Source of the DNA: Cyanobacteria bacterium auto_48_18
GTDB taxonomy: Bacteria > Cyanobacteriota > Vampirovibrionia > Obscuribacterales > Obscuribacteraceae
NCBI GenBank assembly: GCA_036170915.1
Contig: JAVHQC010000004.1
Span: 37,933-101,932 of the forward strand
Direction: 5' to 3'
DNA: 64,000 nt
In this document: piece after piece, positions 9,756 to 61,205 of the stretch
How the letters are laid out: each line of letters opens with the position of its first letter
Position numbering within the stretch: position 1 is the stretch's first letter
Position numbers and translations under genes: made by a program
The notes under the pieces: generated by a model
The model's database searches: none
What the model was told of the DNA's origin: nothing
Seen by the model: the letters and a program-made list of their open reading frames with translations, nothing else

Positions 9756-9780
9756 GGAACTTCCGCGGCGTGCTATGGTC
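9756..9780 (+). promoter_or_regulatory. ECF-type promoter GGAAC-N17-GTC for the cyclic glucan synthase
   Basis: ggaac ttccgcggcgtgctatg gtc. Confidence 0.75.
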
Positions 9781-9858
9781 TATGACTCCACCGCAGGAAG
9801 CTGGAGTCTGGAGCGTGTTGCCTGGGCAATATGGGCAAAACGCGTCAAGAGGTAGTCT

Positions 9859-12800
9859 TTGGCCATTTCGACATATGAAGTACCTGAACAAAAGGCCATA
9901 GGGGATACTCCTCTGCGGGCCGAATTGTTCAGTGCCGGGCAGATGGAGCAACATGGTTATGCCCTGGCCCGCCAACACGTGCTTGGTTCGGGCACGGGTG
10001 GTGATCGGCTGCTTGACCGACTGGCAGAAAATGAAGAGATTTTGCTGCAAGCCGTGCGCATTCTCACGGTTACAGTCAAAGCAAATAGCCGTGTCAGCCC
10101 AGCCGGTGAATGGCTGCTTGATAACTTTTATTTAGTCGAAGAACAAGTGCGCATAGCCAAAAGCCACTTGCCAAAAGGATACAGCCGTCAATTACCTCGC
10201 TTGTTGGGAGGCATAAACGCTAATTTTCCTCGCGTCTATGACATTGCTCTTGAAATCATTTCGCACGGTGACGGCAGATTGGATCCTGAAAGTCTCAGTC
10301 GCCTGATCACTGCCTATCAGACTATTACACCGCTAACTCTCGGCGAACTCTGGGCTATTCCCATTATGTTGCGCATGGCTCTAATTGAAAACTTGCGGCG
10401 CGTAGCCGCTCGCATTGCCTCAGATAGCCAGGAACGAGATTTTGCTGTGAGCTGGGCGGCTCAAATGATCGAGACGGCTGAAAAAGATCCAAAGAATTTA
10501 ATTCTCACATTGGCCGATATGGCTCGCTCAGGGCCCCCACGGGCCAGTGCTTTTGTTGCTGAGTTAACCAGATTATTGCGCGGTCAGGGGCCTGCACTGG
10601 CCCTTCCGATTTCATGGATTGAGCAATGGTTGTCAGAGGTGGGTTTAACCACTGAGCAACTTATACAAGCTGAAAGCCAGCTACAAGCTCAAGATCAAGT
10701 TTCAATTTCGAATACCATCTCCAGCTTGCGCTCTCTGGCATCTTTTAACTGGCGTGATTTTGTTGAAAGCCATAGCTTAGTTGAACAGATTTTACGCGAA
10801 GATCCTGAAGGCATCTATACCCGGATGGATTTTGCTACCCGCGACCACTATCGCCACGTGGTGGAAAAATTAGCCAAGTTGACGCACCTGTCTGAAAGTG
10901 AAGTGGCCAGACAAGCCATTAGTCGCGCTCGTGAAGCGGCTCAAGCCAATAGTGGCCCGCAGCTCAGTCACGTTGGATATTATCTAGTCGACAAAGGTTA
11001 TCCGCAGTTAGAAAAAATCGTTGAAGTAGATCTTTCGCTTGTGGATCACTTCCGGCGGGCTGCTAAACGCTATCCGCAGATAATCTATTTTGGCACCATG
11101 GCTGTCATCACTTTGTCGGTCACCATATTTTCTATCTGGCGATTCTATCAACTCAATCATCTTTCAAAAGTTGCCTGGGCCGGCGTAATTTTTCTACTGT
11201 TGTTGGCTGCCAGTCAGTTTGCCGTTGCTCTGGTTAACTGGCTTTCCACTACATTCGCTAAAGCTTATCCTCTGCCTAAAATGGATTATTCCAAAGGCAT
11301 ACCGGTGGAAGACTCGGCACTGGTAGTGGTGCCAACCATGCTCGGCAGCTTAAATGGTGTTGAAGACATGGTGGAGGCCTTAGAAGTTAGATATCTGGCG
11401 AATCAGGACGACAATGTTTTCTTCGCCTTGCTTACCGATTTTACTGATTCCCCTAACCAAGCACAGCCTCAAGATGCACAGCTGGTCAACCTTGTGGCTA
11501 AGCGGGTGCAAGAGCTCAATATCAAATACGGCGACGGCAAAGATGTATTTTATCTCTTTCACCGCCCCCGTCTCTGGAATTCTCTCGATAGTATATGGAT
11601 GGGTCACGAGCGTAAGCGTGGCAAACTGGGCGACCTCAATTGCTTGTTACGCGGCGGTAAAAATCATTTCTCCACAGTGGTGGGCGACGTCGCTGCTCTT
11701 GCTGACGTGCGCTACGTCATTACACTTGACGCTGATACGCAGTTACCACTCGAAGCTGCTAAGCAATTTGTCGGTGCTATTGCCCACCCACTTAATCGCG
11801 CTCGTTATGACGAGGCTAAGCAGCGAGTGGTAGAAGGTTATGGTATTTTGCAGCCTAGAGTTGATGTGAGCCTTTCGCCTCTCACTCATCGTTCGCCTTA
11901 CGCCAAACTTTATGGTGCCGGTGTTGGTATTGACCCATACACGCGCACCGTATCTGATGTCTATCAAGACTTATTCCATGAGGGTTCCTTTGTCGGCAAA
12001 GGCATTTACGAAATCGATGCTTTCGAACGCGCCCTGCGCGATCGCTTTTGCGAAAATCAAATTCTCAGTCACGACCTTCTTGAAGGCTGTTATGTCAGGT
12101 CTGGCCTGCTCAGCGACGCTCAGCTATACGAAGAATATCCCACCAGTTATAGTTTTGATGTGGCCAGACGCTCCCGCTGGATTCGTGGTGACTGGCAGCT
12201 TTTACCCTGGCTTTTGCCTTTTTCCAGGAATGGCGATCAGCGCAGAAGCAAGCCATTGTCTTTGCTTTCACGCTGGAAAATATTTGACAATTTGCGCCGC
12301 AGTTTGGTGGCAGCTGCACAAGTAGCGCTTTTCATACTCGGATGGACAGTGCTTGCCCCCCATCCCTTCTGCACCATATTGCTAGTCGCTATGATGTTTC
12401 TGCCGGCGGCAGTGGCTGTGTTTAGCGAACTAATTCGCAAGCCGGAAGAACTTGAGCTGACACAACACCTGACGACTGTAGCCGATTCTTGTCGCATACA
12501 TTTTGCCCAGGTGCTTTTCTCCCTTATATGTTTGCCTTATGAGGCTTTCTATAGTCTATCGGCTGTTTTGCGCACACTTTTCCGCATGTACGTGACTCAC
12601 CGCAAATTACTCGAATGGCGCACGGCAGGGGAAACGAGCGTCAGCAGCAACATGCTCTCGTTCTTCTGCTCAATGTGGATTGGCCCGTTTATAGCAATCG
12701 TTTGTTTGAGCTATTTATTTGTCAATGATCAAAAGACACTTGCTTATGCCATGCCGGTGCTGTTGTTCTGGTTGCTTTCGCCGGCGGTGGCATGTTGGTT

Positions 12801-15800
12801 CAGCCGGTCGTCACCAGTGGTGGTGGCAGAGCTTACCGTTGAGCAAAATTTATTCTTGCGTCAGATGGCACGCAAGACCTGGCAATTTTTCAAGGCACTT
12901 GTGGGGCCTGAAGACAACTGGCTGCCCCCCGACAATTACCAAGAAGAGCCTGTGGAGCGCACTGCTCACCGTACTTCGCCTACCAATATTGGTATGGCCT
13001 TGCTGGCTAATCTGGCTGCTTACGATTTCGGCTATATCCACACCACCGAATTGATTGAACGCACGCACTCGACTCTCACCACACTGAATCGGCTGGAGCG
13101 ATATCGCGGGCATTTTTATAACTGGTATGACACCATCAGTCTGGCACCATTGCATCCGCGCTATGTTTCTACTGTTGACAGCGGAAATCTAGCCGGGCAC
13201 TTATTAACCTTAAGACCTGGTTTAATCGGTCTGGTGGAATGTCCGGTTTTGCCGCCACATCTTTTTGATGCCATCGCTGATACTTGCAGATTGCTGCAGC
13301 TGGCGCTCGGTAGTAATAGCAATCAGTTAAATAGTTTTGAGACCATGTTAGAGGGAGTGCGGCGCAAACCGGCTACTAATCTCTCTTCCATACGCACAGA
13401 TTTACTCGGCCTGGAGAAAGCGGCCATAAGCTTTAATGCCGGCCTGATTTTGATGTGTGATCCTAGAGTGCGCACCGATAGCTCCATTGAAGTGGAAATT
13501 TGGTCTGCCGCCTTGCTGGATCAATGCCAGGCGGCCTTAAATGAATTGAATTTGCTCACGCCCTGGGTGCAAGAAGAAGCGCTGACAAAACTGTTGCCTC
13601 TACTGCCGGTGCTCGACGGAGTACCAACATTGCGATTGCTTGCAGGTTACGACGACCTGGTGGATCAAGTTGATCTTGCTACTCTTGTTCAGTTAGCAGA
13701 CTCAGACGTAGATCGCGAAAAAATTGATAACGTTCTAGAACTGGTTCGGCAGGCCAGTGTGCGCGCTCAGGAACTGATCATTACGATTGAGAATTTAGCC
13801 TCGTCGGTAGGTAAACTGGCGCAGATTCCATTTGATTTTCTCTATGACGAAAGGCGCCGCCTGCTCTCTATTGGTTACAACGTAGAAGACCACAGGCTCG
13901 ACGCCAGCTTCTATGACTTACTTGCCTCGGAGGCCCGGCTCGGTAATTTTGTCGCCATCGCTCAGGGCAAACTACCTAAAGAAAGTTGGTTCTCCCTCGG
14001 TCGCCTGCTCACACGTGCTGCTGGAGAATCAGTTTTGTTCTCCTGGAGCGGCTCAATGTTCGAATACTTGATGCCACTGCTGGTGATGCCCTCGTATGAC
14101 GACACGCTTTTAGCACAGACTTATCGGGTCTGTGTGGCCAGGCAGATTGAATACGGTAAGCAGCGCGGTGTGCCCTGGGGTGTTTCAGAGTCTGGATACA
14201 ACAGTGTCGACGTGCACCTCAACTATCAATATAGAGCATTTGGTGTACCTGGTCTCGGTTTAAAACGCGGTTTAGTTGAAGATTTGGTCATCGCGCCTTA
14301 TGCGTGCGTGATGGGGCTGATGGTGGCACCGGAAGAGTCTGTGGCCAATTTGCAGAAAATGCACGCCAGCGGATTTTCAGGTAAGTATGGATTTTACGAA
14401 GCGGTTGATTACACTGCTGCTCGGGTACCTCGCGGTCAGACTTATGTTCTTGTCAAATCGTTCATGGTGCACCACCTTGGTATGAGTCTGCTTTCCATGG
14501 CTTATCATCTGCTTGATAGGCCTATGCAAAAACGGTTTATGGCCGACCCATCTTTTCAGGCCACTGAGCTCTTGTTGCAAGAGAGAGTGCCCAAGGTCAG
14601 ACCTGTGCAATCGCTGACCTCAGAAATTGCCGACTTGCGCACCACCCCTGATAATTCCGAATCATCTCTGCGGGTTCTCACCAGCCCAGACACTCCGTCG
14701 CCAGAATTGCAACTCTTGTCGAATGGTCGTTATCATGTGATGGTGACTAACTCTGGTGGTGGCTATTCCAGATGGAAAGACATGGCCATTACGCGCTGGC
14801 GTGAAGACACTACGGCCGACAACTTTGGTAGCTTCTGCTATGTGCGCGATCGCGAAAGTGGTGACTTCTTCTCCACTACCTATCAGCCGACTTTAGAAGT
14901 ACCAGATGGTTTTGAGGCAATTTTCTCCGAAACAAAAGTAGAATTCAAACGCCGCGACGGCGACTTTGATACACACTGCGAAATTGTAGTCTCGCCTGAA
15001 GACGACGTAGAAGTGAGGCGCGTGCAGCTGACTAATCGCTCACGTACACGCAGAGTGATTGACATTACAAGCTACGGCGAGGTGGTTATCACTTCGCAAA
15101 ATGCCGATCTTGCCCACACTACTTTCAGCAATTTGTTTGTCCAAACCGAAATCGACAAAGAGCGTCAGGCCATTCTTTGCCACCGCCGTGCGCGTTCTGA
15201 AAATGAAGCCATTCCTTATATGTTCCACCTCATGGCAGTGCACGGGGCAGAGCCTGGTGAAGTTTCTTACGAAACTGATCGATCGCGCTTTATCGGTCGT
15301 GGTAACACTGTGGCCGATCCTCTGGCAATGAAGCGTCTTTCGGCATTGTCGAATACCCAGGGTAGTGTGCTTGATCCAATCGTTTCAATGCGCCACCGCA
15401 TTGTCATTGAGGCTGAAGCTAATGTCACTATCAATATCGTTTCTGGTATTCATGAGACAAAAGAAGGCTGTCTGGCTCTGGTTGATAAATATCGCGATCG
15501 TGGACTGGCCGAGCGCGTTTTCGATCTGGCCTGGACTCACGGTCAGGTTGTTTTAAGGCAGCTCAATGCTAATGAGGGTGATGCGCAGCTCTATAATCGC
15601 CTGGCCAGTTCCATTATCTATCCGAGCAAAGCGCTGCGGGCCGATGCCGATATTCTTTTGAAGAACAACCGCGGCCAGTCAGCTTTGTGGGGCTATACGG
15701 TTTCAGGCGATGTGCCTATCGTGCTTTTACAGATCAAAGAGCAAGCTAACAGCGAGCTGGTGCGCCAGCTGGTGCAGGCGCATGCTTACTGGCGATTGAA

Positions 15801-18543
15801 GGGTTTGACTTGTGATCTGGTGATATGGAATGAAGACCAGGCCGGTTACCGGCAAGTATTGCAAGAAGAAATTGTCGGCATCATTGCTTCGGGTTTCGAA
15901 GCCACCATGGGTGATGGCCCGGGTGGAATTTTTGTGCGCCCAGCAGAACAAATATCGGCCGAAGATAGAATTTTGTTCCAGGCCGTGGCTAGGGTTATAA
16001 TCACCGACTCAAAAGGCAGTTTGCTCGAACAAGTTGCCGGTTATGGCTTGCGTGAAAAGCGGCCGCCGCGGCTCGTTGCTACGCGTATCTATAAACCTGA
16101 TGTGGGGAAAGGTGTAAGTGAACTGAGATCTGATTTGATTCTCGTTAATGGTCTGGGAGGCTTCACCAGCGACGGCCGTGAATATGTAATTTCTACTGAT
16201 CAAAATCAAGTGACACCGGCACCCTGGTCGAATGTTTTGGCAAATCGTAATTTCGGCACAGTGGTGACCGAAAGTGGTTCGGTTTACACCTGGGCGGAAA
16301 ACGCACACGAATTTCGTTTGACCCCATGGAACAACGACCCTATTAGTGATTCCAGTGGTGAAGCTTTTTATATACGAGACGAAGAAACGGCCAACTTCTG
16401 GTCACCATCGCCGCTGCCGGCGCGGGGTTCCGCGCCCTATACCAGCCGTCACGGGTTTGGTTATAGCGTCTTTGAGCACACCGAATCTGGTATCGAATCT
16501 GAACTGCTGGTTTTTGTCGCTTTAGATGATAACGTCAAATTTTCAGTACTTAAGGTGAAGAATCGCTCCGGGCGACCACGAAAACTTTCAGCTACCGGTT
16601 ATGTGGAATGGATACTGGGTGATTTGAAATCAAAAACCAGCATGCACGTGGCCACTGAGCTTGATGCCAAAACAGGAGCGCTTCTGGCTCGCAATGCCTA
16701 CAACTCAGAGTTTGCCGGTCGAGTCGCTTTCTTTGATGTTAGTGACACCACACGCACAATCACAGGCGATCGCACTGAATTTTTAGGGCGCAATGGTAGC
16801 CTCGCTTCTCCTGCGGCAATGAGACGGGTGCGCCTCTCAGGCAAATTCGGAGCAGGACTTGATCCCTGTGCCGCCATTCAAATTCCATTTGAGCTGGCCG
16901 ATGGTGAAGAGCGCGAAATTGTCTTCAGACTTGGTGTCGGTAACGATATTAATCATGCTCGCGGCATTATTAATCGCTTCCGCGGCCTGGCTGCAAAACG
17001 TGATGCTTACGAGAATATCTGCCATTACTGGAAGCATACATTGGGTGCAGTCAATGTTGAAACTCCAGATGCATCTATTAATATGCTTATTAATGGTTGG
17101 CTCTTGTATCAAACCATCGGCTGTCGCATTTGGGGTAGAACTGGCTATTACCAGTCTGGTGGTGCCTTTGGTTTTAGAGACCAGTTGCAAGATTGCATGG
17201 CCCTGGTGCACTGCGAGCCCTTGATTTTGCGTGATCAGTTGCTTAAGAGTGCATCGCGCCAGTTTGTTGAAGGTGACGCACAACACTGGTGGCATCCTCC
17301 TAGTGGCCGCGGCGTGCGCACCCATTGTTCAGACGATTATTTGTGGCTGCCTTTTGCCGCTCATCGCTATGTCACATGCACAGGAGACACTGGCATCCTC
17401 GACGAGAAAGTATCGTTTTTAACCGGACGCCTGCTCAATGCCGACGAAGAGTCGTATTATGATCAGCCGCAGATTTCGGATCAAAGTGCATCTTTGTATG
17501 AGCACTGTCTTCGCGCGATCAAACATGGTTTGCGCATGGGTGAACATGGCCTACCGCTTATTGGCGCCGGAGACTGGAACGATGGTATGAACCTCGTTGG
17601 TGAACACGGCAAAGGCGAAAGTATCTGGTTGGCCTTCTTCCTTTATGATGTCTTATGTCGGTTTTCTGAACTGGCCGCTAAACGCGAAGATCAAGAAACA
17701 GTAGATTTATGCGCTACCGAGGCGGCAAAGCTCAAAGAAAATGTGGCTGCACATGGCTGGGACGGCGAGTGGTATCGCCGTGCTTACTTTGACGACGGTA
17801 CGCCGCTTGGTACCTCCAATGGCAGTGAATGCCAGATTGATTCTATTGCCCAGAGCTGGTCGGTGCTCTCAGGTGGTGGTGATCATGCCCGTTGTAAGCA
17901 AGCCATGGGTAGTCTCAATAAACGCCTCGTGCGTAGAGAACATGCATTGATTCAACTTCTTGACCCACCATTTGATCAAGGCACCCTTAACCCGGGTTAT
18001 ATCAAAGGCTATGTGCCTGGTGTGCGCGAGAATGGTGGACAATATACTCACAGCGCTGTGTGGGCGGCAATGGCTTTCGCCAAACTGGGCGACAGCAGGC
18101 TAGCCTGGGAATTGACCACCATGATCAACCCCGTTAACCACGGCAATTCTCCCGAGAAGGTTGCTCTCTATAAAGTCGAGCCTTATGTCATTGCAGCTGA
18201 TGTATACGGTGTGACGCCGCACACCGGCCGTGGTGGCTGGACCTGGTACACAGGCTCGGCCGGCTGGTTCTATCGCTTATTAGTTGAGTCGCTATTGGGC
18301 TTAAGGCTCGACATCGACAAACTCTACTTCACGCCGTGTTTGCCTGCAGACTGGAATTCTTATAAGTTGCACTATCGCTACCGCGAAACTGTATTCCATA
18401 TCACGGTGACTCAACAAGATCAGCTCGAACGTGAGGTGATGATTAAGTTGGATGGCGTTGATTGCGGCGAAAGCTTGCCACTTTCAGCTGATCGCAAAGA
18501 TCATTTTGTAGAAGTGCAAGTCAGGCGCCAGCGGTTAGGTTGA
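9859..18543 (+). CDS. ndvB: Cyclic beta-1,2-glucan synthase (GT84 plus glucoamylase-like and GH94 phosphorylase domains)
   Basis: 2894 aa; [84 protein letters not shown]. Confidence 0.93.
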
Positions 18544-18863: not shown

Positions 18864-19013
18864 ATGATAAATACATTGATTTCGCTGCTTATTTTATTCT
18901 GGATTGTCGGTCTCGTGTCACACATTGGCGGCGACTTCATTCACACACTTTTGGTGTTGGCCGTTGCTGTCTTCATTTTCAATATCGTCACGGGCCGTGG
19001 CGCTCGAGTTTAA
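18864..19013 (+). CDS. lmo0937/DUF5670-family small membrane protein, 49 aa, below the ORF-track cutoff
   Basis: GGAG RBS; MINTLISLLILFWIVGLVSHIGGDFIHTLLVLAVAVFIFNIVTGRGARV. Confidence 0.85.
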   Translation: MINTLISLLILFWIVGLVSHIGGDFIHTLLVLAVAVFIFNIVTGRGARV

Positions 19014-19060
19014 ATTATTTGCTTGCGCCGGCCCGTCATAATCATCACAAGGAGTGATCA

Positions 19061-19960
19061 ATGAGAAATTTACCTGTGTTTTTAGCAGGTGTAATACTTG
19101 CAGGTACTGTTGCTATGCCCGCCCTGGCAGATGAAATCACCACTGTAAGAACTACTACAACCACCACAGACAGTGCTCCAGCAGCTGTAGTTACCCTCAC
19201 CCCCGGCGGCAATTACATGGTAGTTGACCCGGTTACTGGCGTCATGAAGGGCGTTTATGATCCCGCTCGAGGTCTGGTTGGTTCGTCTATAGCACCAGGC
19301 CTTGTTGTTATCGACAACACTTCAAATCGCGTGGTTGCAACATTTGACTCTGGCGGCCGAGTTATTGCTTTAACCAATGCACCTGCCTATGACAGTCTTG
19401 TTGTATCAATTGATGCACGTCGTGCTGAATTAGAAAAAATGATCGCAGCTGGTCGACCGCTCATGAGCGACGCTGTTGCAGCTGTATTGCGTGAAGAACT
19501 AACCAGCATCGCTTCTCAAGAATCGGCATACAGACAGTCAGGCCGGCCGCTCAACTATGAAGAAGCGCTTTCTTTAGCCCAGCGCCTTAACTCTTTGAGT
19601 GATCGCGTGGTGCCTTATGTAAAAGGTGTCACCTTTAGACCGCTGATTGGAAGCAGCTTTGTCACCACTTCTGGCAGTCTGGTGATGGTTGACGAGTATT
19701 CATCGCGCAATCTCAGAATGCAAAGGCGGATTGATGATGAATATGCAGCCGGAAGATTGTCTAATGACAATGTGGCAAGACTTAAAAGTAGCTTGAATGA
19801 AGTAGCTTCACTGCAGACCAAATATACAAAAAATGGTCGGCTTAATCCAAGTAGAACTAAGACTATAGCCACTCGATTAGACAAAGTGCAATCAAGTATG
19901 GATCGCGACATCGCCGATATCAACGCTAAACGTGCTCGTATTGGTATCAAGGTTAATTAG
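19061..19960 (+). CDS. Secreted hypothetical protein with C-terminal helical repeats
   Basis: AAGGAG RBS, signal peptide ending ALA, Thr-rich linker. Confidence 0.85.
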   Translation: MRNLPVFLAGVILAGTVAMPALADEITTVRTTTTTTDSAPAAVVTLTPGGNYMVVDPVTGVMKGVYDPARGLVGSSIAPGLVVIDNTSNRVVATFDSGGRVIALTNAPAYDSLVVSIDARRAELEKMIAAGRPLMSDAVAAVLREELTSIASQESAYRQSGRPLNYEEALSLAQRLNSLSDRVVPYVKGVTFRPLIGSSFVTTSGSLVMVDEYSSRNLRMQRRIDDEYAAGRLSNDNVARLKSSLNEVASLQTKYTKNGRLNPSRTKTIATRLDKVQSSMDRDIADINAKRARIGIKVN

Positions 19961-20704: not shown

Positions 20705-21829
20705 TTAACTGGCCCTTTCCTGAACGCTGGAATCAATGATTTCGATGTTGTCAATCTGTTCAATTGTTTCCATTACATTCAACTTTTCCTGCCCATCTAA
20801 TGCTGTGTTCTCGTAATTGATTTGATCAAAGATGGCGGGTGGCACTAGAACGTATACGGCATTCGGAATCACTGTGACACGCATGGGTGTTGTACCTGCT
20901 TCTTCGCCATCAATCATGGCTGTCACGGCGTTATTTCGTGGGCTTAAAGCGCTGCCGGCGCTGGTCAAAACTGACCTTGCTTTTTTTGCCACATTTTGAA
21001 AAGCTGAGCGAAGTCCGCGTCGAGGCACCACGTCGATCACTGCTTCTTTTACCTTCAACACGATGTGAGGTGCCTCTCCATCAATCTGGCCACCAGCAAA
21101 GCGGAAACCAATTTTCACATAATCGTTGAATCTTTTAGGGTTCAATATATGCAGTTCCATAAGGCCGTCGTATAGCATGCTGGTATCAGCAGTTTTCCCC
21201 AGGCCGAGATCTTCTACATTGCCGACAAACACTCCAGAGGCTTGCACCTTGAAGGTTTGACCGCCAGTGGTGATTTTGAATATTACTGGTCTTTCAGCGA
21301 TTGTATTTATCATTGCTACGGCATATGCCATCATCTTGAACTTAGTTTTTAGTTGCCTGGCAGGAAAGACAAAGGCGTCTGAAAGTGGCCCTGCGCCTGC
21401 CATGCCAGCGAAAAATTCGCCATTCATCATGCCCATATCAATGCGCATAGGCTTGCCGTTTTTGATCACCTCAAGCGCGTTTTCGAGCGGATCGGCGAAA
21501 AACTTTTCGGCCACGATACCTAAATTGCGAGCTAACACGTTACCTGTACCGAGTGGCATAATCGCGGCAGGAATATTTGACTTGGCTTCAGCCAGCGCTG
21601 CCAGGGCAAATCGTATAGTGCCATCACCGCCAGCGGCAATGACGAGGTCTAGTGGTGGCTTTAATAGTGGCACAAGATGCTGGGCTGTGGTTTCTATTGA
21701 CGTTGGATATAAAGTAACTAGAAACTCGCCGTCTTTAGTTAGTTCGGTAACAAACTGTCCGAGCCAAGCTTCGGCGTGAGTTTGCGAACGGGCAGAAGGG
21801 TTGTAAACGAGCAAGACATTTTTTGGCAT
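20705..21829 (-). CDS. Diacylglycerol kinase family (YegS/DAGK) lipid kinase
   Basis: VYNPSA, AAGGDGTI, PLGTGNVLARNLG, IDGE. Confidence 0.9.
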   Translation of the reverse strand: MPKNVLLVYNPSARSQTHAEAWLGQFVTELTKDGEFLVTLYPTSIETTAQHLVPLLKPPLDLVIAAGGDGTIRFALAALAEAKSNIPAAIMPLGTGNVLARNLGIVAEKFFADPLENALEVIKNGKPMRIDMGMMNGEFFAGMAGAGPLSDAFVFPARQLKTKFKMMAYAVAMINTIAERPVIFKITTGGQTFKVQASGVFVGNVEDLGLGKTADTSMLYDGLMELHILNPKRFNDYVKIGFRFAGGQIDGEAPHIVLKVKEAVIDVVPRRGLRSAFQNVAKKARSVLTSAGSALSPRNNAVTAMIDGEEAGTTPMRVTVIPNAVYVLVPPAIFDQINYENTALDGQEKLNVMETIEQIDNIEIIDSSVQERAS

Positions 21830-21922
21830 ATTGTTATTTTAGTTGTGGGGTTCCATACTGTTTCGTTCTACTAGTGTCGCTGAAACACCCCAGATTGTTC
21901 CATTTTTATTGTCGCGTTATCT

Positions 21923-21947
21923 GGAACTCTTTATTGGCTTCACCGTC
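21923..21947 (+). promoter_or_regulatory. ECF-type promoter GGAAC-N17-GTC for the ABC exporter operon
   Basis: ggaac tctttattggcttcacc gtc. Confidence 0.75.
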
Positions 21948-21981
21948 TCAGACTTTGAATCTCATAATTGGTGCTTCTAAT

Positions 21982-50224: not shown

Positions 50225-50658
50225 GCTGTCTTTTTTCTCAAGGCTGTGAGCAAAGATTGTGTTCTTTTTTGACCCGGCAACAAGGTTTTTACAACGAGGT
50301 TACGGGAATGATCGTCAAGATTTGGCAGCCGTCTCAAGTAGTCTTGCACACTTCTAATTTCTTCTTCTTCCAGAGCAATTATTGCAACTTTTTCGCCGGC
50401 TGTTGAAAAAACGCTCTCGATAATTTTTCCGATGGTATCAAAATGAGAGCTGCCGTGATCAGGTTCGCCGCCTAATTCAGTCACTCTGGCTTCGAGCAAT
50501 TGGGCCCTCTGTTGGTGAGCCTGACTGGCCACGGTCAACTCCTGCTTAATATACCAATCTGGAGCCGCCGAGAGAGCCTGTTTATAGACTCGACTGGCCG
50601 ACCACTCGGTTTTCAACAGAAAATTCAAATCTTCCACCGCATTCTGTTTGTTGAACAT
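50218..50658 (-). CDS. Ferritin-like four-helix-bundle stress protein (DUF2383/PA2169-like)
   Basis: LNFLLKTE..A..Y, H, LGGEP, LEEEE...DY; GGAG RBS before ATG 50658. Confidence 0.8.
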   Translation of the reverse strand: MFNKQNAVEDLNFLLKTEWSASRVYKQALSAAPDWYIKQELTVASQAHQQRAQLLEARVTELGGEPDHGSSHFDTIGKIIESVFSTAGEKVAIIALEEEEIRSVQDYLRRLPNLDDHSRNLVVKTLLPGQKRTQSLLTALRKKTAC

Positions 50659-50704
50659 CAGAAAGACTCCAGTCAAGCGTCATATAACCCGCACTAGCTC
50701 TTCC

Positions 50705-50729
50705 GACGGAACCACGGCCTTCTGGTTCC
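50705..50729 (-). promoter_or_regulatory. ECF-type promoter GGAAC-N17-GTC
   Basis: gac-N17-gttcc. Confidence 0.75.
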
Positions 50730-50818
50730 AGTTTGCCACTTTATATAGGAATGGGCTGTGCTAAAACCGCCACAAGTCAATAGCTTGAACTTTTAACCTC
50801 AGCAATTGAAGCGGAACA

Positions 50819-50843
50819 GGAACTAATGGCGTTTGTAATAGTC
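50819..50843 (+). promoter_or_regulatory. ECF-type promoter GGAAC-N17-GTC
   Basis: ggaac taatggcgtttgtaata gtc. Confidence 0.75.
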
Positions 50844-50897
50844 GTCCGAATTCGTGCTCGATCTCCTAGCGGGAAGAGTCAGTGAAGGAGGATTGTT

Positions 50898-51389
50898 ATG
50901 GGTAATATGGATTGTTCGAGCTCTGGCAGCCAATCGTGTTCAAGCGCTATTGAATTGCTGCAAGGTGAACAGAAGGCAGTGAGAAAGCTGTTTAATGATT
51001 ATGACCAAGCTAAAGACTTTAAAGGTAAAGAAGATGTTGTCGGCGCTCTGTCTTTAGCGCTGTCACTCTATTGCAGCCTTGAAACCGAAATTATTTACCC
51101 TGCTATGAAGGCTAATGGCTCATGTTCTGAAGAAGCAGAACCGTGTCAGGGTGAAGAAAACCATCATCAAGCCAAGCTTTTGATCGATCAATTGCAAAGA
51201 TTAACAGCTGACGTTGACGGCGAAAAATATGATGCTGCAGTAAAGGAACTGAAAGTTGTGGTGGAAAAACATTTCTCGGAAGAGGAGAAAACACTTATTC
51301 CAGAGATGAAGAAGTCAGGAAACAACTTTGAAAAATTGAGCGCTCACATCGAAAATTTCAAAGCTGAACATAAAGCTCAATTGGTTTAA
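50898..51389 (+). CDS. Hemerythrin-domain protein, partly degenerate
   Basis: AIELL..EQ..VRKLF, ETEIIYPA, EENH, KHFSEEE. Confidence 0.8.
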   Translation: MGNMDCSSSGSQSCSSAIELLQGEQKAVRKLFNDYDQAKDFKGKEDVVGALSLALSLYCSLETEIIYPAMKANGSCSEEAEPCQGEENHHQAKLLIDQLQRLTADVDGEKYDAAVKELKVVVEKHFSEEEKTLIPEMKKSGNNFEKLSAHIENFKAEHKAQLV

Positions 51390-51411
51390 TTGCATATATA
51401 AGGAGTGGAGA

Positions 51412-51831
51412 ATGAAGAAGATTAGTTTATTGGCATTAGCTGTTCTTGCCAGTGGCTGTACAGGTTTGACTGCTGCCATGGCCGAAGATGCTGCGAAAAG
51501 CGAACAGAAGTTCGAAGAATCGCAGCAAAAGGGGCCCGATAACACCGGAAAAAATACACGGGACCAAAAACTTGGTAAACCCACAGCACAGAATCAATCC
51601 AATCAAAAGAAAGATGTGGACATTACACGTGAATTGCGCAAATCCATTATGGAAGCAAAAGGTCTTTCAGTGGATGCTCAAAACATAAAAATCATTACCC
51701 AGAAAGGCAAAGTGACTTTGCGCGGACCGGTTGAGAGCGAAAGCGAGAAAAAGATGATTGACGATCTGGTGAAAAATTGCGGCAACGTTGCTAGCTACAC
51801 CAACCAATTAGAAGTAAAAAAGAATAACTAA
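51412..51831 (+). CDS. Secreted BON-domain protein
   Basis: DNTGKNTRD..PTAQNQSN..DITRELRK..NIKIITQKGKVTLRGPV. Confidence 0.92.
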   Translation: MKKISLLALAVLASGCTGLTAAMAEDAAKSEQKFEESQQKGPDNTGKNTRDQKLGKPTAQNQSNQKKDVDITRELRKSIMEAKGLSVDAQNIKIITQKGKVTLRGPVESESEKKMIDDLVKNCGNVASYTNQLEVKKNN

Positions 51832-51838
51832 GACGGAG

Positions 51839-51866
51839 GGTGCCACTGTCAGTCGACGGTGGCACC
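51839..51866. other. GC-rich inverted repeat between the BON and zinc-ribbon genes
   Basis: GGTGCCACTGTC-agtc-GACGGTGGCACC (one G-U pair), no T tract. Confidence 0.6.
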
Positions 51867-51902
51867 CGATGCTCATTAGCCCGAAGTGGGAGGTCGAATA
51901 TT

Positions 51903-52196
51903 ATGTCTGGCGATATAACAGTCAACTGTCGTTCTTGTTTCAAAAGATTTGTCTTTTCTATTGAAGAGCAGGAATTTTTCAACAGTTGCGGCCTCACCAA
52001 CTCACCTAAGCGCTGCCACAATTGCCGCCTGGTTTCACGGGTGCAACGAGTCTCAGGAAGTACCGAACATACCTCAGCTGTACAGTGTGCTGAATGTGGA
52101 ACGCGCACTGTTGTGCCATTTATACCGAAAAACGGGAAGCCTATCTACTGTAATCAATGCTTCCGTAACAAGCGGTCTGAATCTCTGGCGGTCTAG
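51903..52196 (+). CDS. Zinc-ribbon + CxxC-x17-CxxC domain protein
   Basis: CRSC..FVFSIEEQEFF..PKRCHNC; CAECG..VPFIP...PIYCNQC; GGAGG RBS. Confidence 0.9.
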   Translation: MSGDITVNCRSCFKRFVFSIEEQEFFNSCGLTNSPKRCHNCRLVSRVQRVSGSTEHTSAVQCAECGTRTVVPFIPKNGKPIYCNQCFRNKRSESLAV

Positions 52197-52270: not shown

Positions 52271-53272
52271 ATGGCAATTTTAAGACAAGTTCAGAGCGAT
52301 AAGCGAATGTGCCTGGTGTGCCAACTAGCCTTTGTTGGTACGACTAAAAAATGCCCCAACGACGGCACACCTCTAGTGCTGATCAGTGACCCTTTAATAG
52401 GAAGCTTTTTAGACCAGGGTTATCAAATAATCGAGCAGGTGGGCCGTGGTGCTATGGGCTCGGTCTACAAAGCCAATGGTGAAGACGGCGAAATTGTGGC
52501 GGTGAAAGTGCTGCATAAATCGCTTGTTGGAGAGCTTGAGCCGGTGCGCCGCTTTCAGATGGAGGCAGAGCTGACTAGCCGTCTGTCACATCGCAACATT
52601 ATTACTGTGGATGATTTTGGCGTGCTCGAGGATGGCCGCCCATACATGATTATGGATTACATCGAAGGCGAATGTATTAACGACATCGTGGACGCGTATG
52701 GCCCTCTATCCTTGCAAGAAGCACTACCCATCTTTATACAGGTAGCGCAGGCACTCGGTTATGCGCACGAACAAAATATTATTCATCGAGATGTAAAACT
52801 GAGCAATATTATGCTCATCAATTTGCCGCATCAGCGCAATGTGGTCAAGCTGGTTGATTTTGGTATTGCCAAGCAACTCACTTCTGATTGCTCCTTTGAA
52901 GATCAAAACGGTTTAACTGATGCTGGTCAGGTAGTTGGTAGCCCACTATACATGAGCCCAGAACAATGCATGGGCCAGGCTCTTGATCACCGCACAGACA
53001 TTTATTCTCTTGGTTGTGTTATGTATTACGCGCTTACTGGTAGACCGGTGTTCACTGCCGAGAGCATTATGCAGTTGATGCGTCACCAAATTGCGCGCCC
53101 ACCTCAACCTTTACGCACATTGACCAGCTCTGTATCAGAAGAAGTGGAAAAAATTGTGCTCAAAGCTTTGGCAAAGCGGCCTGAAGATCGTTATCAGTCC
53201 ATGAATGAGATGGTAGCGGACCTTGAACAAGCTCTTGACCGAGTATCTCCGCTGCATATTGTTGCCGCCTAA
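52271..53272 (+). CDS. Soluble Hanks-type Ser/Thr protein kinase with N-terminal Cys knuckle
   Basis: GRGAMGSV, VAVK, HRDVKLSN, DFG, YMSPEQ. Confidence 0.95.
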   Translation: MAILRQVQSDKRMCLVCQLAFVGTTKKCPNDGTPLVLISDPLIGSFLDQGYQIIEQVGRGAMGSVYKANGEDGEIVAVKVLHKSLVGELEPVRRFQMEAELTSRLSHRNIITVDDFGVLEDGRPYMIMDYIEGECINDIVDAYGPLSLQEALPIFIQVAQALGYAHEQNIIHRDVKLSNIMLINLPHQRNVVKLVDFGIAKQLTSDCSFEDQNGLTDAGQVVGSPLYMSPEQCMGQALDHRTDIYSLGCVMYYALTGRPVFTAESIMQLMRHQIARPPQPLRTLTSSVSEEVEKIVLKALAKRPEDRYQSMNEMVADLEQALDRVSPLHIVAA

Positions 53273-55276: not shown

Positions 55277-55301
55277 GGAACTTTGCTCGCAAGGTTCCGT
55301 C
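55277..55301 (+). promoter_or_regulatory. ECF-type promoter GGAAC-N17-GTC
   Basis: ggaac tttgctcgcaaggttcc gtc. Confidence 0.75.
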
Positions 55302-55321
55302 ACGAGCCCCAGAGGTGTCTC

Positions 55322-55744
55322 GTGGAAACTACGCATACACAAAAAGCTGTACTTCGCCTGCATGATTATCCAGCAGTATTAATCATTGAAGACGATCTGT
55401 TACAACGAAAGCTATACAAACTCATTGCCACCCAAGTGCAGATGAAGCCTACGATTGTGGGCGACGCGGCCGCGGCGGTTATAGCAGCCGGCCAGTCTGA
55501 TTTTGCCCTTGTGATTATGGATTTGCAGATGCCTGATTCTGATGGTTTTCTTTGCGCTCAAAGTTTGCGTCAGTTGCCTCGGATTTCTGGTAACGGCACG
55601 CCCATAATCGCTGTCACCGCTCATGCCATGCAGGGTGATCGGGAGCGTTGCCTGGCAGCAGGTATGGATGACTATTTAAGTAAACCGTTCACTTTGCTCG
55701 AGCTGCGTACCAAGATTGCCCAGTGGACAGGCGCCCGCACTTAG
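55322..55744 (+). CDS. Single-domain response regulator
   Basis: IEDD, MDLQMPD, AVTAHAM, YLSKP; GTG start after GAGGTG, downstream of the promoter. Confidence 0.88.
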   Translation: METTHTQKAVLRLHDYPAVLIIEDDLLQRKLYKLIATQVQMKPTIVGDAAAAVIAAGQSDFALVIMDLQMPDSDGFLCAQSLRQLPRISGNGTPIIAVTAHAMQGDRERCLAAGMDDYLSKPFTLLELRTKIAQWTGART

Positions 55745-55767: not shown

Positions 55768-58614
55768 CTATAGATTGAGCTTTTTCTTCAAGTCATTGCG
55801 GTGTTGCAAAATACCCGCCCAGATATCACCTTTCGTTGCTAGCCTTTCAGGCATGGTGAAAACTGTGAAATCAGTGGGATAGACATGGCCCAGCTCTTTC
55901 CAGTCGAGGGGTGTTGATGCTGATGCCTCCACTGCAGAACGCAGTGAATATGGCACAGGCAGTGTCTTACCTCTGGCGTTCATATTGTGATCAAAGAAAA
56001 TTTTACCTGGCCTTTTTTTGATACTCCATTCCATGGTGATGTCTTCAGGATGAGCGGCCAGCAGGTGGCGGCCTAGAATCTCGCAGCAGCTGCGCACTGC
56101 GTCATAGGGAATATTGCGCTCAATAGGAATATAAATATGCAAACCGGTTTTGCCAGACGTTTTCACAAATGCCTCTAGCTTGAGACCATCTAGTATTTCT
56201 TTAAGCCAGAGCGCGCTTTCGCAAGTTTTATCGAAACCCTTTTGATGTAATTGTGGCTCTTCTTTGTGCTTTTCTTTGCCGCTATAAATATAGGGATCGA
56301 GATCGAGCACGAGATAATCTGGGTGATTAGCTACGCTGTTTTCAACATTTTTCAGCGATCCGGTAGTTTTACCCGGCAGATTTTTTTCGGGCGCAATGCG
56401 AGTGTGCGAGGCATGCAGCTCCAGACCCCCCATTTGACCGCACCAGACAAGGGTAGCCAGATTGTTGCACAATAAAAATTCGCCGTCGCCATCGCTATGT
56501 TCAGAATAATAGTCAACAGTTTCTAAAAATGGTGGCACAGTGTTCTTCTGATGCTTCTGGAAAAAACGCTGACCATTGATACCATCCGGCATTCTGATCA
56601 TAGTGAATGGCCTATCTTTTAAATGCTGCAAAATATAGGGCGAGGCTTGCAGCAAGTAACGGATGTAATCACGTTTGGTTACGGCGTCTGTGCTCTCAGA
56701 AGCTGGCCAGAATATTTTGTTTAGATGACTGAGTTTGACTTCGTAATCTTCAACTTTGAAAAGACCATTTTCAGGTGCACTGTCGAGACGCTCAATTAAT
56801 TCAGCGATTTCAGGGCTGCTGTTAGCGCTTTTTGTTCTTTTGGCAGGAGACTTGCTGAGGGCTTTAGCGCCTGTTTTTTTTGTCGCTACTTTAATTGTCT
56901 TCTTTTCGCTTTTGACTGTTTTCTTTTCGTCGACCACAACCACCGCCTCAGGTACAATTTTCACAGGATCAATATCTGCTCGCAAGTGCATAAAGACTGG
57001 TGCGCGTAATAAACCCTGTTTTGTCTTTTCTGAATATTTTATTTCGGCTACAAGCTCGGGTTTGACCCAGGTAACGTCCTTGCTTGCATATTCTTTGGGT
57101 ACTGTTACCGGTGACTTCGCTACTTTAATAGTCTTAAGTTGTTTGGTCAATTCCTTAAGCAGTCTGGTATTAAATCCAGTGCCAACTTTTCCAGCGTATT
57201 GTAGACTGCCGTCTTTGTTGCGCTCGGCGATAATTAGTGCTCCGAGTAAGCCATTTCGTGCTCCACCACCTGCTGAAAAACCGCAGACAACAAATTCTGA
57301 GCTTTTGTTGCCTTTTACTTTCAACCAGTTGGCACTGCGCTTACCTGGTGTATAGACGCTATCGAGTGACTTAGCGACAATACCTTCCATACCTTCCTCC
57401 ATAGCTTTCTGAAAGGCTTTCTTACCATCGCCAGTATAGGCCTCAACTACTAAAACGTTTTTGTTGCTCTTTCTGCTTACATGTTTTTTTAGCAGCGGCA
57501 GCCTGGCTGAAAGTGGTTCATTGAGCAAGCTAGCAGTATCGGCTTGCAAAATATCAAACACGTAAAAGCGAATAAGTGGACCACTGGCTGTTTTGCCCTT
57601 CGACTTAAACATTGACCTCGCCTGCAACAATTCAAAGGACGGCACACCTTTATCGTTAATGGCGACAATCTCACCATCGATGATCATGTTGGTGGTCAAT
57701 TTTGTTAGTTGATCGACAATTTGTGGAAACTTGTCGGTAATATCGATGCCATTGCGAGAGAGCATTTTCACCTGGCCTTTGAAAATGTAGGCAATGGCGC
57801 GAATGCCGTCAAATTTTGGTTCGTAAATCCAGTTAGTGGTGGAGAATGGCTGTGATGCCAGAGAAGCCAGCATTGGCTCAATCAACTTAGGCGGCTTGGC
57901 CGCGGCAGCTGAAACGGTCTTTTTAGAAATTGTGGATTTTGCTACTGCAGCTTTTGTTGGTGTGGATTTTGCTCGAGTTGATTTTGCTTTAGTAGATTTT
58001 GCTGGAGATGCGGCTTCAGGGTCCTTTAAAGTTTTTTTTGACAGCACTGACCTGATATCATCGGTAATTTCTTGATCACTACCAGTCTTGGCAAATTCGT
58101 CATCTCCTTTAACTAGCAACCAGTTTTTCTCTGCGCCAGGTCGGCTTAGTTGAATCAAAGTAAAGGCGCCGTTCAATTTTTTGCCATGCATAATGATGGT
58201 CAATTTGCCTTTGGCAATGCCTCTAAGAACAGCTTTGCCCATCTCGTCCTTGGTGGCCGTTGCCGGCAACCCTTCAACCCTAAAAGTGCCGATGTCCCAG
58301 ACAATTACATCACCACCACCATACTCACCTTGAGGAATGGACCCCTCAAAACTGGCATAACCAATCGGATGATCTTCAACATGAACAGCCAGCCTTTTTT
58401 GACCGGGATCTAAAGACGGCCCCTTTGGCACGGCCCACGAGACTAAAACACCTTGAGCTTCTAGTCGAAAATCATAGTGTAAATGGCTGGCAGCGTGCTT
58501 TTGCACACAGAACAGCAGTTGCTTCTTGCTGGCTTTCACATTTTCAGCGCCGGAAGGCTCGCTGGTTTTTTTGAAGTCGCGTTTATTTTGGTAGGTTTTC
58601 AGGGCCGTACTCAT
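55768..58614 (-). CDS. ligD: NHEJ DNA ligase D (phosphoesterase-ligase-polymerase order)
   Basis: QKHAASHLHYDFRLE, EPKFDGIR, EGIVAK, LDLDP, KTSGKTGLH; start MSTALKTY downstream of the promoter motif. Confidence 0.95.
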   Translation of the reverse strand: MSTALKTYQNKRDFKKTSEPSGAENVKASKKQLLFCVQKHAASHLHYDFRLEAQGVLVSWAVPKGPSLDPGQKRLAVHVEDHPIGYASFEGSIPQGEYGGGDVIVWDIGTFRVEGLPATATKDEMGKAVLRGIAKGKLTIIMHGKKLNGAFTLIQLSRPGAEKNWLLVKGDDEFAKTGSDQEITDDIRSVLSKKTLKDPEAASPAKSTKAKSTRAKSTPTKAAVAKSTISKKTVSAAAAKPPKLIEPMLASLASQPFSTTNWIYEPKFDGIRAIAYIFKGQVKMLSRNGIDITDKFPQIVDQLTKLTTNMIIDGEIVAINDKGVPSFELLQARSMFKSKGKTASGPLIRFYVFDILQADTASLLNEPLSARLPLLKKHVSRKSNKNVLVVEAYTGDGKKAFQKAMEEGMEGIVAKSLDSVYTPGKRSANWLKVKGNKSSEFVVCGFSAGGGARNGLLGALIIAERNKDGSLQYAGKVGTGFNTRLLKELTKQLKTIKVAKSPVTVPKEYASKDVTWVKPELVAEIKYSEKTKQGLLRAPVFMHLRADIDPVKIVPEAVVVVDEKKTVKSEKKTIKVATKKTGAKALSKSPAKRTKSANSSPEIAELIERLDSAPENGLFKVEDYEVKLSHLNKIFWPASESTDAVTKRDYIRYLLQASPYILQHLKDRPFTMIRMPDGINGQRFFQKHQKNTVPPFLETVDYYSEHSDGDGEFLLCNNLATLVWCGQMGGLELHASHTRIAPEKNLPGKTTGSLKNVENSVANHPDYLVLDLDPYIYSGKEKHKEEPQLHQKGFDKTCESALWLKEILDGLKLEAFVKTSGKTGLHIYIPIERNIPYDAVRSCCEILGRHLLAAHPEDITMEWSIKKRPGKIFFDHNMNARGKTLPVPYSLRSAVEASASTPLDWKELGHVYPTDFTVFTMPERLATKGDIWAGILQHRNDLKKKLNL

Positions 58615-58648
58615 TGCTTCAACCTTTTCAGTGACATCTTGCTGTCTC

Positions 58649-58673
58649 GACCTCACTAATATTGAATTGTTCC
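58649..58673 (-). promoter_or_regulatory. ECF-type promoter GGAAC-N17-GTC for ligD
   Basis: gac-N17-gttcc. Confidence 0.75.
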
Positions 58674-58690
58674 CTTTGGTTGAGCTTGGT

Positions 58691-58715
58691 GGAACTTTGG
58701 CAACGCGGTGCCGTC
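58691..58715 (+). promoter_or_regulatory. ECF-type promoter GGAAC-N17-GTC for ku
   Basis: ggaac tttggcaacgcggtgcc gtc. Confidence 0.75.
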
Positions 58716-58739
58716 TCAACACCTGCCTCAAAGGAGATT

Positions 58740-59738
58740 ATGGCAATGGCGCATGCAATGTGGACTGGCACGATTAGTTTCGGCCTGGTTTCTATCCCTG
58801 TAAGACTGATGGCAGCTACCAGTCGTAAAGGCGTTTCTTTTAACCTCTTGCATAAAGAATGTCACAACCGTATTCAAGAGAAACGCTGGTGCCCCGAGTG
58901 CGATAAAGAAATTACCTGGGATGACGTGGAGAAAGGCTATCAGTATGCCAAAGACGAGTATGTTTCCTTTTCTCCTGAAGATTTTGAATCGCTCCCTCTA
59001 CCCAGCAAAAATATTTTAGAAGTAGAGTCATTTGTGGAAATCGACGAGATTGATCCTATTTATTTTGACAGCAGTTATTTTTTGCAGCCAGATAAGAAAG
59101 GAAATAATTCCTATAATCTTTTGCGCACCGCTCTTGAGAAAAAGAAGATGGTGGCAGTGGGTAAAATTGCCCTGCGAACTAAAGAACGTCTTTGCATTGT
59201 GAGGGTTTATGGTTCGCATCTTGTGGTGGAGACTTTGTTGTATCCTGATGAAATCAATATGCAAGATGAAGAAATCGCTAAAACCGCGCCTTCAAAACAA
59301 GAATTGAGTATTGCTGAGCATTTGGTTGATTTGATGACCAGCCCCTTTGATCCTGAGCAATACAAAGATAATTATCGCGAGGCTTTAGAAGAACTAGTTG
59401 AAGCCAAAGTTAGCGGCAGTGGCATCAAAGCACCAGCCAAGAAAGCCACCACCGGTAAGGTGCTTGATCTCATGGAAGCTTTGCGTGAAAGCGTATTGTC
59501 AGCCAAAAAAGGCGGCAGCAGTAGCAAGCGTTCTGCCGGCAGAGCAGGAGCTGAAGACGATGTAGCTGACTCTGAAAAAGTAAAGGCGGCACCAAGAAAG
59601 AAATTGGCGACTGTTAAAAAGCCAGCTGCAACCACACGCCGCACCGCAGCTCCAGCTAAGAAGGCTGCTGCACGCGCCAAAGAAACTGCCGCTAAGAAGA
59701 AAGTCAGTCCGATTCAGCGCAAGAGAAAAGCCAGCTAA
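58740..59738 (+). CDS. ku: NHEJ Ku protein with long basic tail
   Basis: WTGTISFGLVSIPV, KGY, YKDNYRE, DLMEALRES; AAGGAG RBS. Confidence 0.95.
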   Translation: MAMAHAMWTGTISFGLVSIPVRLMAATSRKGVSFNLLHKECHNRIQEKRWCPECDKEITWDDVEKGYQYAKDEYVSFSPEDFESLPLPSKNILEVESFVEIDEIDPIYFDSSYFLQPDKKGNNSYNLLRTALEKKKMVAVGKIALRTKERLCIVRVYGSHLVVETLLYPDEINMQDEEIAKTAPSKQELSIAEHLVDLMTSPFDPEQYKDNYREALEELVEAKVSGSGIKAPAKKATTGKVLDLMEALRESVLSAKKGGSSSKRSAGRAGAEDDVADSEKVKAAPRKKLATVKKPAATTRRTAAPAKKAAARAKETAAKKKVSPIQRKRKAS

Positions 59739-60673: not shown

Positions 60674-60699
60674 GGAACAACCTGTTGGTGGGTTCCGTC
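60674..60699 (+). promoter_or_regulatory. ECF-type promoter GGAAC-N18-GTC
   Basis: ggaac aacctgttggtgggttcc gtc. Confidence 0.7.
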
Positions 60700-60749
60700 A
60701 ATTGCCGCAGAAACAAAGACCCAATCAATGTGAAAAGCATGGAGAAGTG

Positions 60750-61205
60750 ATGAAAGAAGTTGAAACTACCGTAGTACGGACTACTGATGGCGTTCCGGTA
60801 CGAGTTGAAGACACGTCGTCGAACTGGACTGTGGGCTTCTTGATACTGGCCGCGATTGCCCTTGTTATTGGTGCAGTCACTATGTACAACAATGGTGCTT
60901 CGACCAGTTTAAGACAACAAACAATTGAGTCGCAACAAACATCACTTCAGCAACAGCAAAGTGAGACCCAAAGATTGCAAGATATGACTGCTGCTCAACA
61001 AGCTTCTATGAATCAGATGCCCAAGTCAACGACTACTAATGTAGTTATAACTGACGGATTGAACGGCGGCGCCGGACCTGGTTCGAAAACAGTTGCTACA
61101 CCCCCCACGCTTCAGGTAATTGAGACCCATTCGCCAGCTCCAGCAGCCCCTCCTGCACCTGCGACACCTTCCGAACCCATTGAATCCACTACCGTTAATC
61201 CTTAA
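60750..61205 (+). CDS. Single-TM Gln/Pro/Thr-rich protein
   Basis: GGAG RBS; one TM helix; low-complexity tail. Confidence 0.75.
   Translation: MKEVETTVVRTTDGVPVRVEDTSSNWTVGFLILAAIALVIGAVTMYNNGASTSLRQQTIESQQTSLQQQQSETQRLQDMTAAQQASMNQMPKSTTTNVVITDGLNGGAGPGSKTVATPPTLQVIETHSPAPAAPPAPATPSEPIESTTVNP

Follow-up and report, generated by a model that had tools for sequence, protein, structure and literature searches.

Why should a single promoter motif recur 28 times around a sigma factor gene that has no anti-sigma gene beside it? The question is raised by a 64,000-nucleotide (nt) stretch of DNA, hereafter the window, from Cyanobacteria bacterium auto_48_18 (GCA_036170915.1, JAVHQC010000004.1, positions 37,933-101,932, forward), in which copies of GGAAC-N17/18-GTC span positions 9756-60699 and a sigma factor of the extracytoplasmic function (ECF) type is encoded at 41390. 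The explanation that we favor, and consider reasonably probable, is that this protein (hereafter 41390) is an orphan duplicate of an ECF25 sigma factor, limited by proteolysis, that runs a general-stress regulon and is fed by a neighboring hybrid kinase and a receiver-histidine phosphotransfer (REC-HPt) protein.

The promoter motif and its extent

The two strands of the window hold 28 exact copies of the motif, 22 with a 17-nt spacer (N17) and six with an 18-nt spacer (N18), whereas 100 shuffles of the window sequence gave a mean of 2.36 matches and a maximum of 6. Each of the 14 control spacers (10-16 and 19-25 nt) yields 0-2 matches within the window; such spacer-shifted patterns were used as controls because the backward-read pattern, which we rejected, differs in word content. 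The motif recognized in the first-pass annotation of this DNA is thus real. Its count of 22 N17 copies stands, but its total of 26 was too low, as it listed four N18 copies and omitted two that lie in coding sequence (38901 in the kinase gene and 42445 in the 42398 gene). Twenty-four of the 28 sites (22 assigned by script and the remainder by manual reading of start codons) are aimed at a downstream gene, in keeping with the orientation first described, and two are aimed at no open reading frame (ORF; 18708, minus; 30062, plus). The single GCC variant that had been mentioned is located at 46172 on the minus strand (46148-46172), upstream of the FAD oxidoreductase gene, and the window holds zero exact sites before 9756 and after 60699, just as had been reported for the intergenic regions before 9.7 kb and after 60.7 kb. 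Two further sites lie on the same contig just left of the window (C4:37564 and C4:32753). The motif equals the ECF25 promoter, GGAAC and GTC, given in the supplement of PMC7826278, which bears out the ECF-type reading first suggested for it.

The motif sites are conserved in position. They recur at orthologous places, with changed spacer sequences, in 12 of 14 relatives' loci, each of which holds 3-12 N17 sites as against 0-2 at any control spacer; the remaining two loci, which span kinase to sigma only, have 0 and 1 site.

Across the whole genome there are 123 sites at N17 and 74 at N18, compared with 36-59 across the 14 control spacers. Outside the window, 69 of 101 N17 sites and 29 of 68 N18 sites are placed like promoters by crude gene calls, as are 3-14 for ten control spacers, which leaves an excess of about 80. 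Genome-wide, the promoter-like sites mostly lie 20-70 nt ahead of a start codon, with the -35 element followed by [TCA][AT]. We infer that these sites act as promoters, and that the regulon comprises about 100 of them. Because some 80 excess sites lie elsewhere, the window, at about 1% of the genome, holds approximately one quarter of the regulon, grouped around the 41390 gene. A density scan in 119 bins of 50 kb placed 27 sites in the top bin and 8 and 7 in the next two; the regulon is not confined to the cluster, since some three quarters of the excess in promoter-like sites is found outside the window. Pfam searches of 41 of the 98 outside targets returned long catalase (katE), KGG, BON, YtxH, hemerythrins, ADH, ligase, cupin and fasciclin, and no family for 24 of the 41. 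Smaller motif clusters of at most 8 sites per 50 kb are also present (G000:C11:155000-173000, C13, C15 and C29), with genes for ADH, Gfo/Idh/MocA, hemerythrin, ChaB, KGG and a Crp-like protein.

An ECF25 sigma factor in two copies

The genome encodes 12 sigma-70 proteins, four of them ECF-sized. Two are of SigG type and 50% identical to each other: 41390 and a class-wide copy adjoining metK on contig C35. In ECF25, of which Nostoc SigG is the studied member, an anti-sigma factor at +1 is typical (PMC7826278 supplement). The C35 copy has at +1 a membrane anti-sigma factor with three zinc fingers and a single helix, and so matches the group fully. 41390, which consists of sigma regions 2 and 4 only, flanked by an N-terminal extension with an LRVV motif and a C-terminal Ala-Ala, has no anti-sigma factor at +1; a terminator and then a convergent gene follow. 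An HxxxCxxC gene at +1 was found for 0 of 17 extra copies. Neither 41390 nor the C35 copy has a GGAAC/GTC promoter upstream of its own gene.

Photosynthetic members of the phylum have single-copy orthologs that share 41-46% identity with 41390, and in 18 of 19 of their loci the motif lies about 60 nt upstream. These orthologs are presumably SigG, judging by their single copy, their +1 anti-sigma-like gene and the upstream motif. In a tree, 41390 grouped with the cyanobacterial SigG-type proteins rather than with two other ECFs of the genome (clade support 0.98). The extra copies formed one group with support of 0.86 in one tree, a grouping that another tree left open, and searches of plasmids returned only distant ECFs. 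Judged by its promoter and its clade, 41390 is a descendant of ECF25, one that lacks both the neighboring anti-sigma factor and the promoter of its own. Compared with SigG-SapG of Nostoc punctiforme, as far as the ECF25 supplement describes it, 41390 thus has the GGAAC/GTC promoter and the sequence family (44% identity to the comparison ortholog and a common clade) but differs in that it lacks a +1 anti-sigma factor and a promoter for autoregulation, ends in Ala-Ala, and has a target set that is general-stress rather than cell-wall.

Motif excess and sigma copy number

Across 85 genomes of the order, we measured motif excess as N17 minus N21 sites per genome, a noisy measure with one control spacer per genome, taken over related genomes that are not independent. 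The median excess is 39.5 in the 64 genomes with at least two SigG-type copies and 6 in the 21 with none or one. By genus, with five mixed genera left out, 18 genera differ from 8 with p=0.002. In 14 genomes of other families that have the class-wide copy only, the counts are 246 versus 244 for a 14-nt control, or 220 versus 199 without G028, which has a repeat in its control. Motif excess therefore tracks the extra copies, and it is on this co-occurrence that the link from motif to sigma factor rests; 41390 is the likely driver, as had been proposed from the window alone.

Putative proteolysis signals on the extra copy

What might restrain a sigma factor with no anti-sigma gene beside it is suggested by its ends. 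We took the best 120 out of 2603 homologs; a terminal Ala is present in 97 of the 100 outside the conserved clade (64 Ala-Ala, 24 Cys-Ala) versus 0 of the 20 inside it, and in 34 of 36 after thinning at 70% identity; the proteome baseline is 6.5%. Extra copies read from genomes end in Ala in 9 of 10 cases, and in 17 of 17 in the set picked as likely extra copies. An N-terminal L[RKSTQ][VLI][VI] motif is found in 51 of the 100 homologs, compared with 1.3 in shuffles. The tail through which SspB binds the N-domain of ClpX ends in LRVVK (PMC8808172). The genome encodes a ClpX with the zinc (N-terminal) domain, its ClpXP enzyme lying on contig C25, and no SspB was found in a genome search. Together, the terminal Ala and the SspB-tail-like motif suggest that the extra copies are turned over by ClpXP.

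There is a precedent in sigma-AntA of Streptomyces (ECF282), an orphan ECF which, by the available part of PMC7142297, ClpXP degrades via a terminal Ala-Ala; direct proteolysis of an ECF was in 2020 termed unique to it. The 41390 family shares with sigma-AntA the combination of no cognate anti-sigma factor and a conserved terminal Ala(-Ala). It differs in lineage and ECF group and in scope, sigma-AntA governing two operons of an antibiotic cluster and no global regulon, and no N-terminal tether is described for sigma-AntA in that part of the source.

Similar ends occur beyond the sigma factor. By crude gene calls, 8 of 116 first genes after promoter-like sites encode an Ala-Ala end, as do 25 of 4160 other genes and 0 of 74 first genes at control spacers, which suggests that part of the regulon may be cleared by the same protease. 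The tmRNA tag of the genome ends Ala-Val-Ala and holds NVIKF; the protein at 39515-39766 has NVIEF twice as well as its Val-Ala end, and its three homologs retain mainly a CxNGVC tail.

Signal input

The kinase encoded upstream of the sigma gene has many HAMP domains, a GAF domain and three receivers by Pfam. In domain layout, taken from descriptions rather than sequence comparison, it is like OsaA of Streptomyces coelicolor, a large cytosolic hybrid kinase with many HAMPs that is tied to osmotic stress and SigB (PMC9739842); no HPt partner is known there for OsaA, whereas our kinase gene has a REC-HPt gene downstream of it. The REC-HPt protein, among the best conserved in the cluster, is 88-99% identical within the genus and keeps Asp63 and His211. 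A stand-alone REC-HPt is present in 42 of the 64 multi-copy genomes versus 0 of the 21 others (29 candidates scored per genome; two matches in long fused frames dropped).

Between 41090 and 41320, upstream of the sigma gene, are a GGAAC half-site in reverse orientation, a pair of opposed TAGGGG boxes and a TTGT...AGAAT promoter-like block, for which a sigma-70 promoter scan gave no call. The half-site belongs to a 10-mer (41090-41099), conserved in 10 of 10 sequences, that on the other strand reads as a GGAAC -35 but has no -10 to go with it. The TAGGGG boxes, which we take to resemble NarL-type sites in a genome with eight NarL-type domains, precede 4 of 17 extra copies and none of 10 others. 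Input may act via transcription of the sigma gene or via control of turnover. Two further candidates were rejected: RNA pairing of the opposed boxes, in which changes in one box are unmatched in the other, and phosphorylation by the neighboring Ser/Thr kinase, which is missing from relatives' clusters.

Proposed mechanism

We propose that a single ECF25 (SigG-type) envelope sigma factor was duplicated in Obscuribacterales. The old copy would have retained its membrane anti-sigma factor. The new copy, 41390, would have retained its specificity for a GGAAC -35 and a GTC -10 set 17 nt apart, lost its anti-sigma factor, and come to head a general-stress regulon with about 100 promoters. Without an anti-sigma factor, 41390 would be held low by protease turnover through a ClpXP-type degron at its C-terminus, a small residue followed by Ala, and its N-terminal SspB-tail-like motif would dock on ClpX and aid this turnover. 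The neighboring poly-HAMP hybrid kinase would sense stress and signal through REC-HPt, the output of which may be either more transcription of the sigma gene or slower degradation of its product.

A bolder version of this proposal, which we offer only tentatively, is that the system evolved independently and adds one more general-stress switch to RpoS, SigB and EcfG. The anti-sigma factor would have been swapped for a built-in N- and C-terminal degradation signal (ClpX tether plus Ala), with no SspB found; the kinase and REC-HPt would gate turnover, and co-regulated proteins with such tails, for example 42398, could be protease decoys that lock the response on.

Alternative explanations

Several observations weigh against the proposal. 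41390 has no motif of its own upstream, unlike most ECFs, and REC-HPt was not found in 22 of the 64 multi-copy genomes. TAGGGG was rejected as a genome-wide operator, with 17 of 64 copies intergenic, like control words, and no enrichment. As for the tails, one paralog of ten has no terminal Ala, 24 of 100 homologs end in Cys-Ala, for which no degron data turned up, and the N-terminal motif is kept in only 16 of 36 thinned homologs. The genomes with 0-1 copies still show a small excess (979 versus 751), and three of them exceed 25: G110 (+38, one copy), G158 (+27, one copy) and G013 (+40), of which only G013 is explained, its contig ending 200 nt after the kinase. Conversely, the multi-copy genomes G140, G104, G134, G121 and G102 have an excess below 10. 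In locus L226 (G099), csbD, YflT, BON, ku and ligD stand beside an extra sigma gene with no exact motif in 20 kb; the stress-gene promoters there may have eroded or changed. The G099 extra sigma has no N-terminal extension. Finally, in the region that reads the -35 element the two copies in our genome agree at 22 of 29 residues, and in the region for the -10 element at 23 of 33. Because they differ so little in these segments cross-talk is likely: the class-wide copy is probably able to recognize these promoters as well.

The alternative that survives best keeps the regulon and the sigma factor as they are and has the orphan held by a soluble anti-sigma factor, for example 42398, or by the C35 anti-sigma factor acting in trans; we judge it unlikely. 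In 12 of the relatives' loci the 42398 protein adjoins the sigma factor; its gene is preceded by a motif, and it is helical and poorly conserved, like many anti-sigma factors. All 31 of its homologs end in Ala-Ala, 30 of the 31 have an LRVV-kind motif, and the tail RxL[ST][LI][IV] is conserved; 42398 might itself be cleared by ClpXP via its Ala-Ala tail. It has no usable match in the ESM Atlas, and its AlphaFold model is poor (pLDDT 62, pTM 0.22). Yet it has no family match, and searches of five genomes, of which four are from other genera with extra sigmas, did not turn it up. An anti-sigma factor of this kind would leave the conserved tail of the sigma factor itself unexplained.

A slightly less likely possibility is that the class-wide C35 SigG, with its zinc-finger membrane anti-sigma factor, is the main reader of the promoters and 41390 a mere amplifier. 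The near-identity of the DNA-reading segments would fit, as would the many targets that are envelope proteins and the small excess in single-copy genomes. But the class-wide copy is present without an excess in the 14 single-copy genomes of other families, the order's 0-1-copy group reaches a median of just 6, and csbD, ku-ligD, otsA and YflT adjoin extra copies in several genera and not the class-wide copy.

Non-polar C-termini are recognized by several proteases, a point in favor of the view that the tails serve Lon, FtsH, ClpC or no protease at all; this view, taken together with the idea that the motif is the operator of a dimeric transcription factor, we consider very improbable. The motif has a direction and a fixed spacer of 17-18 nt, is found for the most part 20-70 nt ahead of start codons and equals a published ECF promoter.

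Conservation and origin of the cluster

The word island in the first-pass annotation could be read as acquired DNA, an origin that our results do not bear out. Gene order is kept among relatives for the kinase, REC-HPt, sigma, 42398, csbD and YflT, and the sigma factor is 85-100% identical in the closest relatives (Ca. Obscuribacter, Obscuribacterales). The window has a GC content of 47.4%, and 32 of 78 genome blocks are farther than it from the genome's tetranucleotide mean. Because composition is typical and the flanks are common to relatives, the left in four and the right in eight, we conclude that the cluster has been passed down by vertical descent in Ca. Obscuribacter, gaining and losing genes without recent import. 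That it is a recently acquired stress island carrying its own sigma factor is, in spite of the variable gene content (most relatives lack ligD-ku, the Ser/Thr kinase, otsB and the debranching unit at this position), already largely refuted by these data together with the absence of tRNA from the window and of integrase from the ORFs scanned and with the branching of the sigma factor within the order's own SigG family.

Dense motif clusters by an extra sigma gene are found elsewhere in G127 (17 sites in 40 kb) and G119 (14); such clustering is not general, because the other 14 of the 16 regions examined hold 0-4 sites. In a record titled Flavobacterium (L054), probably mislabeled or misbinned, the kinase, REC-HPt and sigma recur with 74-88% identity.

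Genes and other features of the window

Pfam agrees with the genes named in the first-pass annotation, and the gene content so checked (Table 1) supports a general-stress set.

Table 1. Coordinates of cluster features within the window.
Feature	Position	Strand	Basis
Cyclic beta-1,2-glucan synthase (NdvB/Cgs type)	9859..18543	+	Family search
DUF5670 small membrane protein, secreted hypothetical protein	18864..19960	+	Pfam
HlyD, ABC ATPase, two ABC-2 permeases, dual-specificity phosphatase	21823..27762	+	Pfam
otsA (minus) and otsB (plus), trehalose synthesis; divergent motif pair 32776/32835	31402..34038	.	Pfam, motif scan
Poly-HAMP-GAF hybrid histidine kinase, three receivers; own motif 34070	34246..39477	+	Pfam
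Small protein, motif at 39481, Val-Ala end; present in 3 relatives' loci	39515..39766	+	Relatives' loci
Stand-alone REC-HPt phosphorelay protein	39993..40823	+	Pfam, alignment
Conserved upstream blocks of sigma, with a putative regulatory role	41090..41320	+	Alignment of window and 9 relatives
ECF25/SigG-type sigma, duplicate copy	41390..42049	+	Pfam, tree
Genus-specific helical protein, convergent on sigma; own motif 42984	42398..42949	-	Homolog alignment
csbD, YflT-like, GlsB/transglycosylase-associated stress proteins	43102..44213	-	Pfam
FAD oxidoreductase-Rieske, hemerythrin-like proteins, glycosyltransferase, debranching enzyme, DUF2383, BON, zinc-finger protein	44524..52196	.	Pfam
Ser/Thr kinase; not at this place in relatives' clusters examined	52271..53272	+	Pfam, relatives' loci
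Single-domain receiver under motif, conserved in genus cluster	55283..55744	+	Pfam, relatives' loci
ligD (minus), ku (plus); divergent motif pair 58649/58691	55768..59738	.	Pfam, motif scan

Genes for two receivers, a fasciclin and a CHASE3 kinase lie between the left flank and ndvB (6566-9591), a place where four relatives have none of them; the receiver-kinase trio is found inside stress clusters in three genomes from other genera, and the 6566-9591 genes may be part of the stress cluster. A DprA-type winged-helix gene (28691-29764) lies within the cluster without a motif.

Hairpins are found about 100 nt beyond the two sites that face no ORF, at 18565-18702 (minus) and 30093-30185 (plus), and are candidates for sigma-dependent small RNAs; their folding z-scores, about -4.5 and -4.9, come mostly from terminator hairpins common to convergent genes, and neither region has a match in relatives' loci. 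No Rfam family was found in the window. A 16-bp perfect palindrome occurs in pairs spaced 33-36 nt, in intergenic DNA at gene ends, at 20050/20083, 29932/29966 and 42193/42227 of the window and at G000:C4:36666/36702, with 8 of its 10 genome copies on this contig stretch; the pairs may be an operator or a small repeat element.

Relation to known systems

The ECF25 promoter and sigma family are known already, as are general-stress regulons and tail-dependent ECF turnover, each separately. The closest functional parallel is to alphaproteobacterial EcfG-NepR-PhyR (ECF15), which, according to PMC7083833, likewise combines an ECF sigma factor, a GGAAC -35, kinase input and a regulon of similar size that includes csbD, catalases and ku-ligD. 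The systems differ in ECF group, in the -10 element (CGTT there, by PMC7083833, GTC here) and in the kinase, which is HWE/HisKA2 there and a HisKA poly-HAMP protein here. NepR (PF18557) was not found in our 86%-complete genome, with a positive Caulobacter control, and Pfam shows no PhyR among the window ORFs, no genome-wide search for it having been made. RpoS, unlike 41390, is a group 2 sigma factor whose degron is internal and which has an adaptor dedicated to it. What the RpoS-RssB-ClpXP circuit of E. coli (PMC7226468) has in common with our proposal is a general-stress sigma factor limited by proteolysis and a receiver-domain protein in the circuit. The likeness to the SigB regulon is in target genes only, as 41390 has just regions 2 and 4 and is not a group 3 sigma factor with partner switching. 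We found no literature on an ECF regulon of this lineage or of Melainabacteria, in a search of mostly open-access papers, and PMC11119718 holds nothing on this lineage.

These data provide a first regulatory map for Obscuribacterales, uncultured, non-photosynthetic sister lineages of cyanobacteria that are common in soil and water. Under the mechanism that we propose, a general-stress regulon would have arisen again from a different sigma factor family, converging on csbD, katE, otsAB, ku-ligD and KGG, and the tails of the extra copies predict an order-wide family of directly proteolysed ECF sigma factors.

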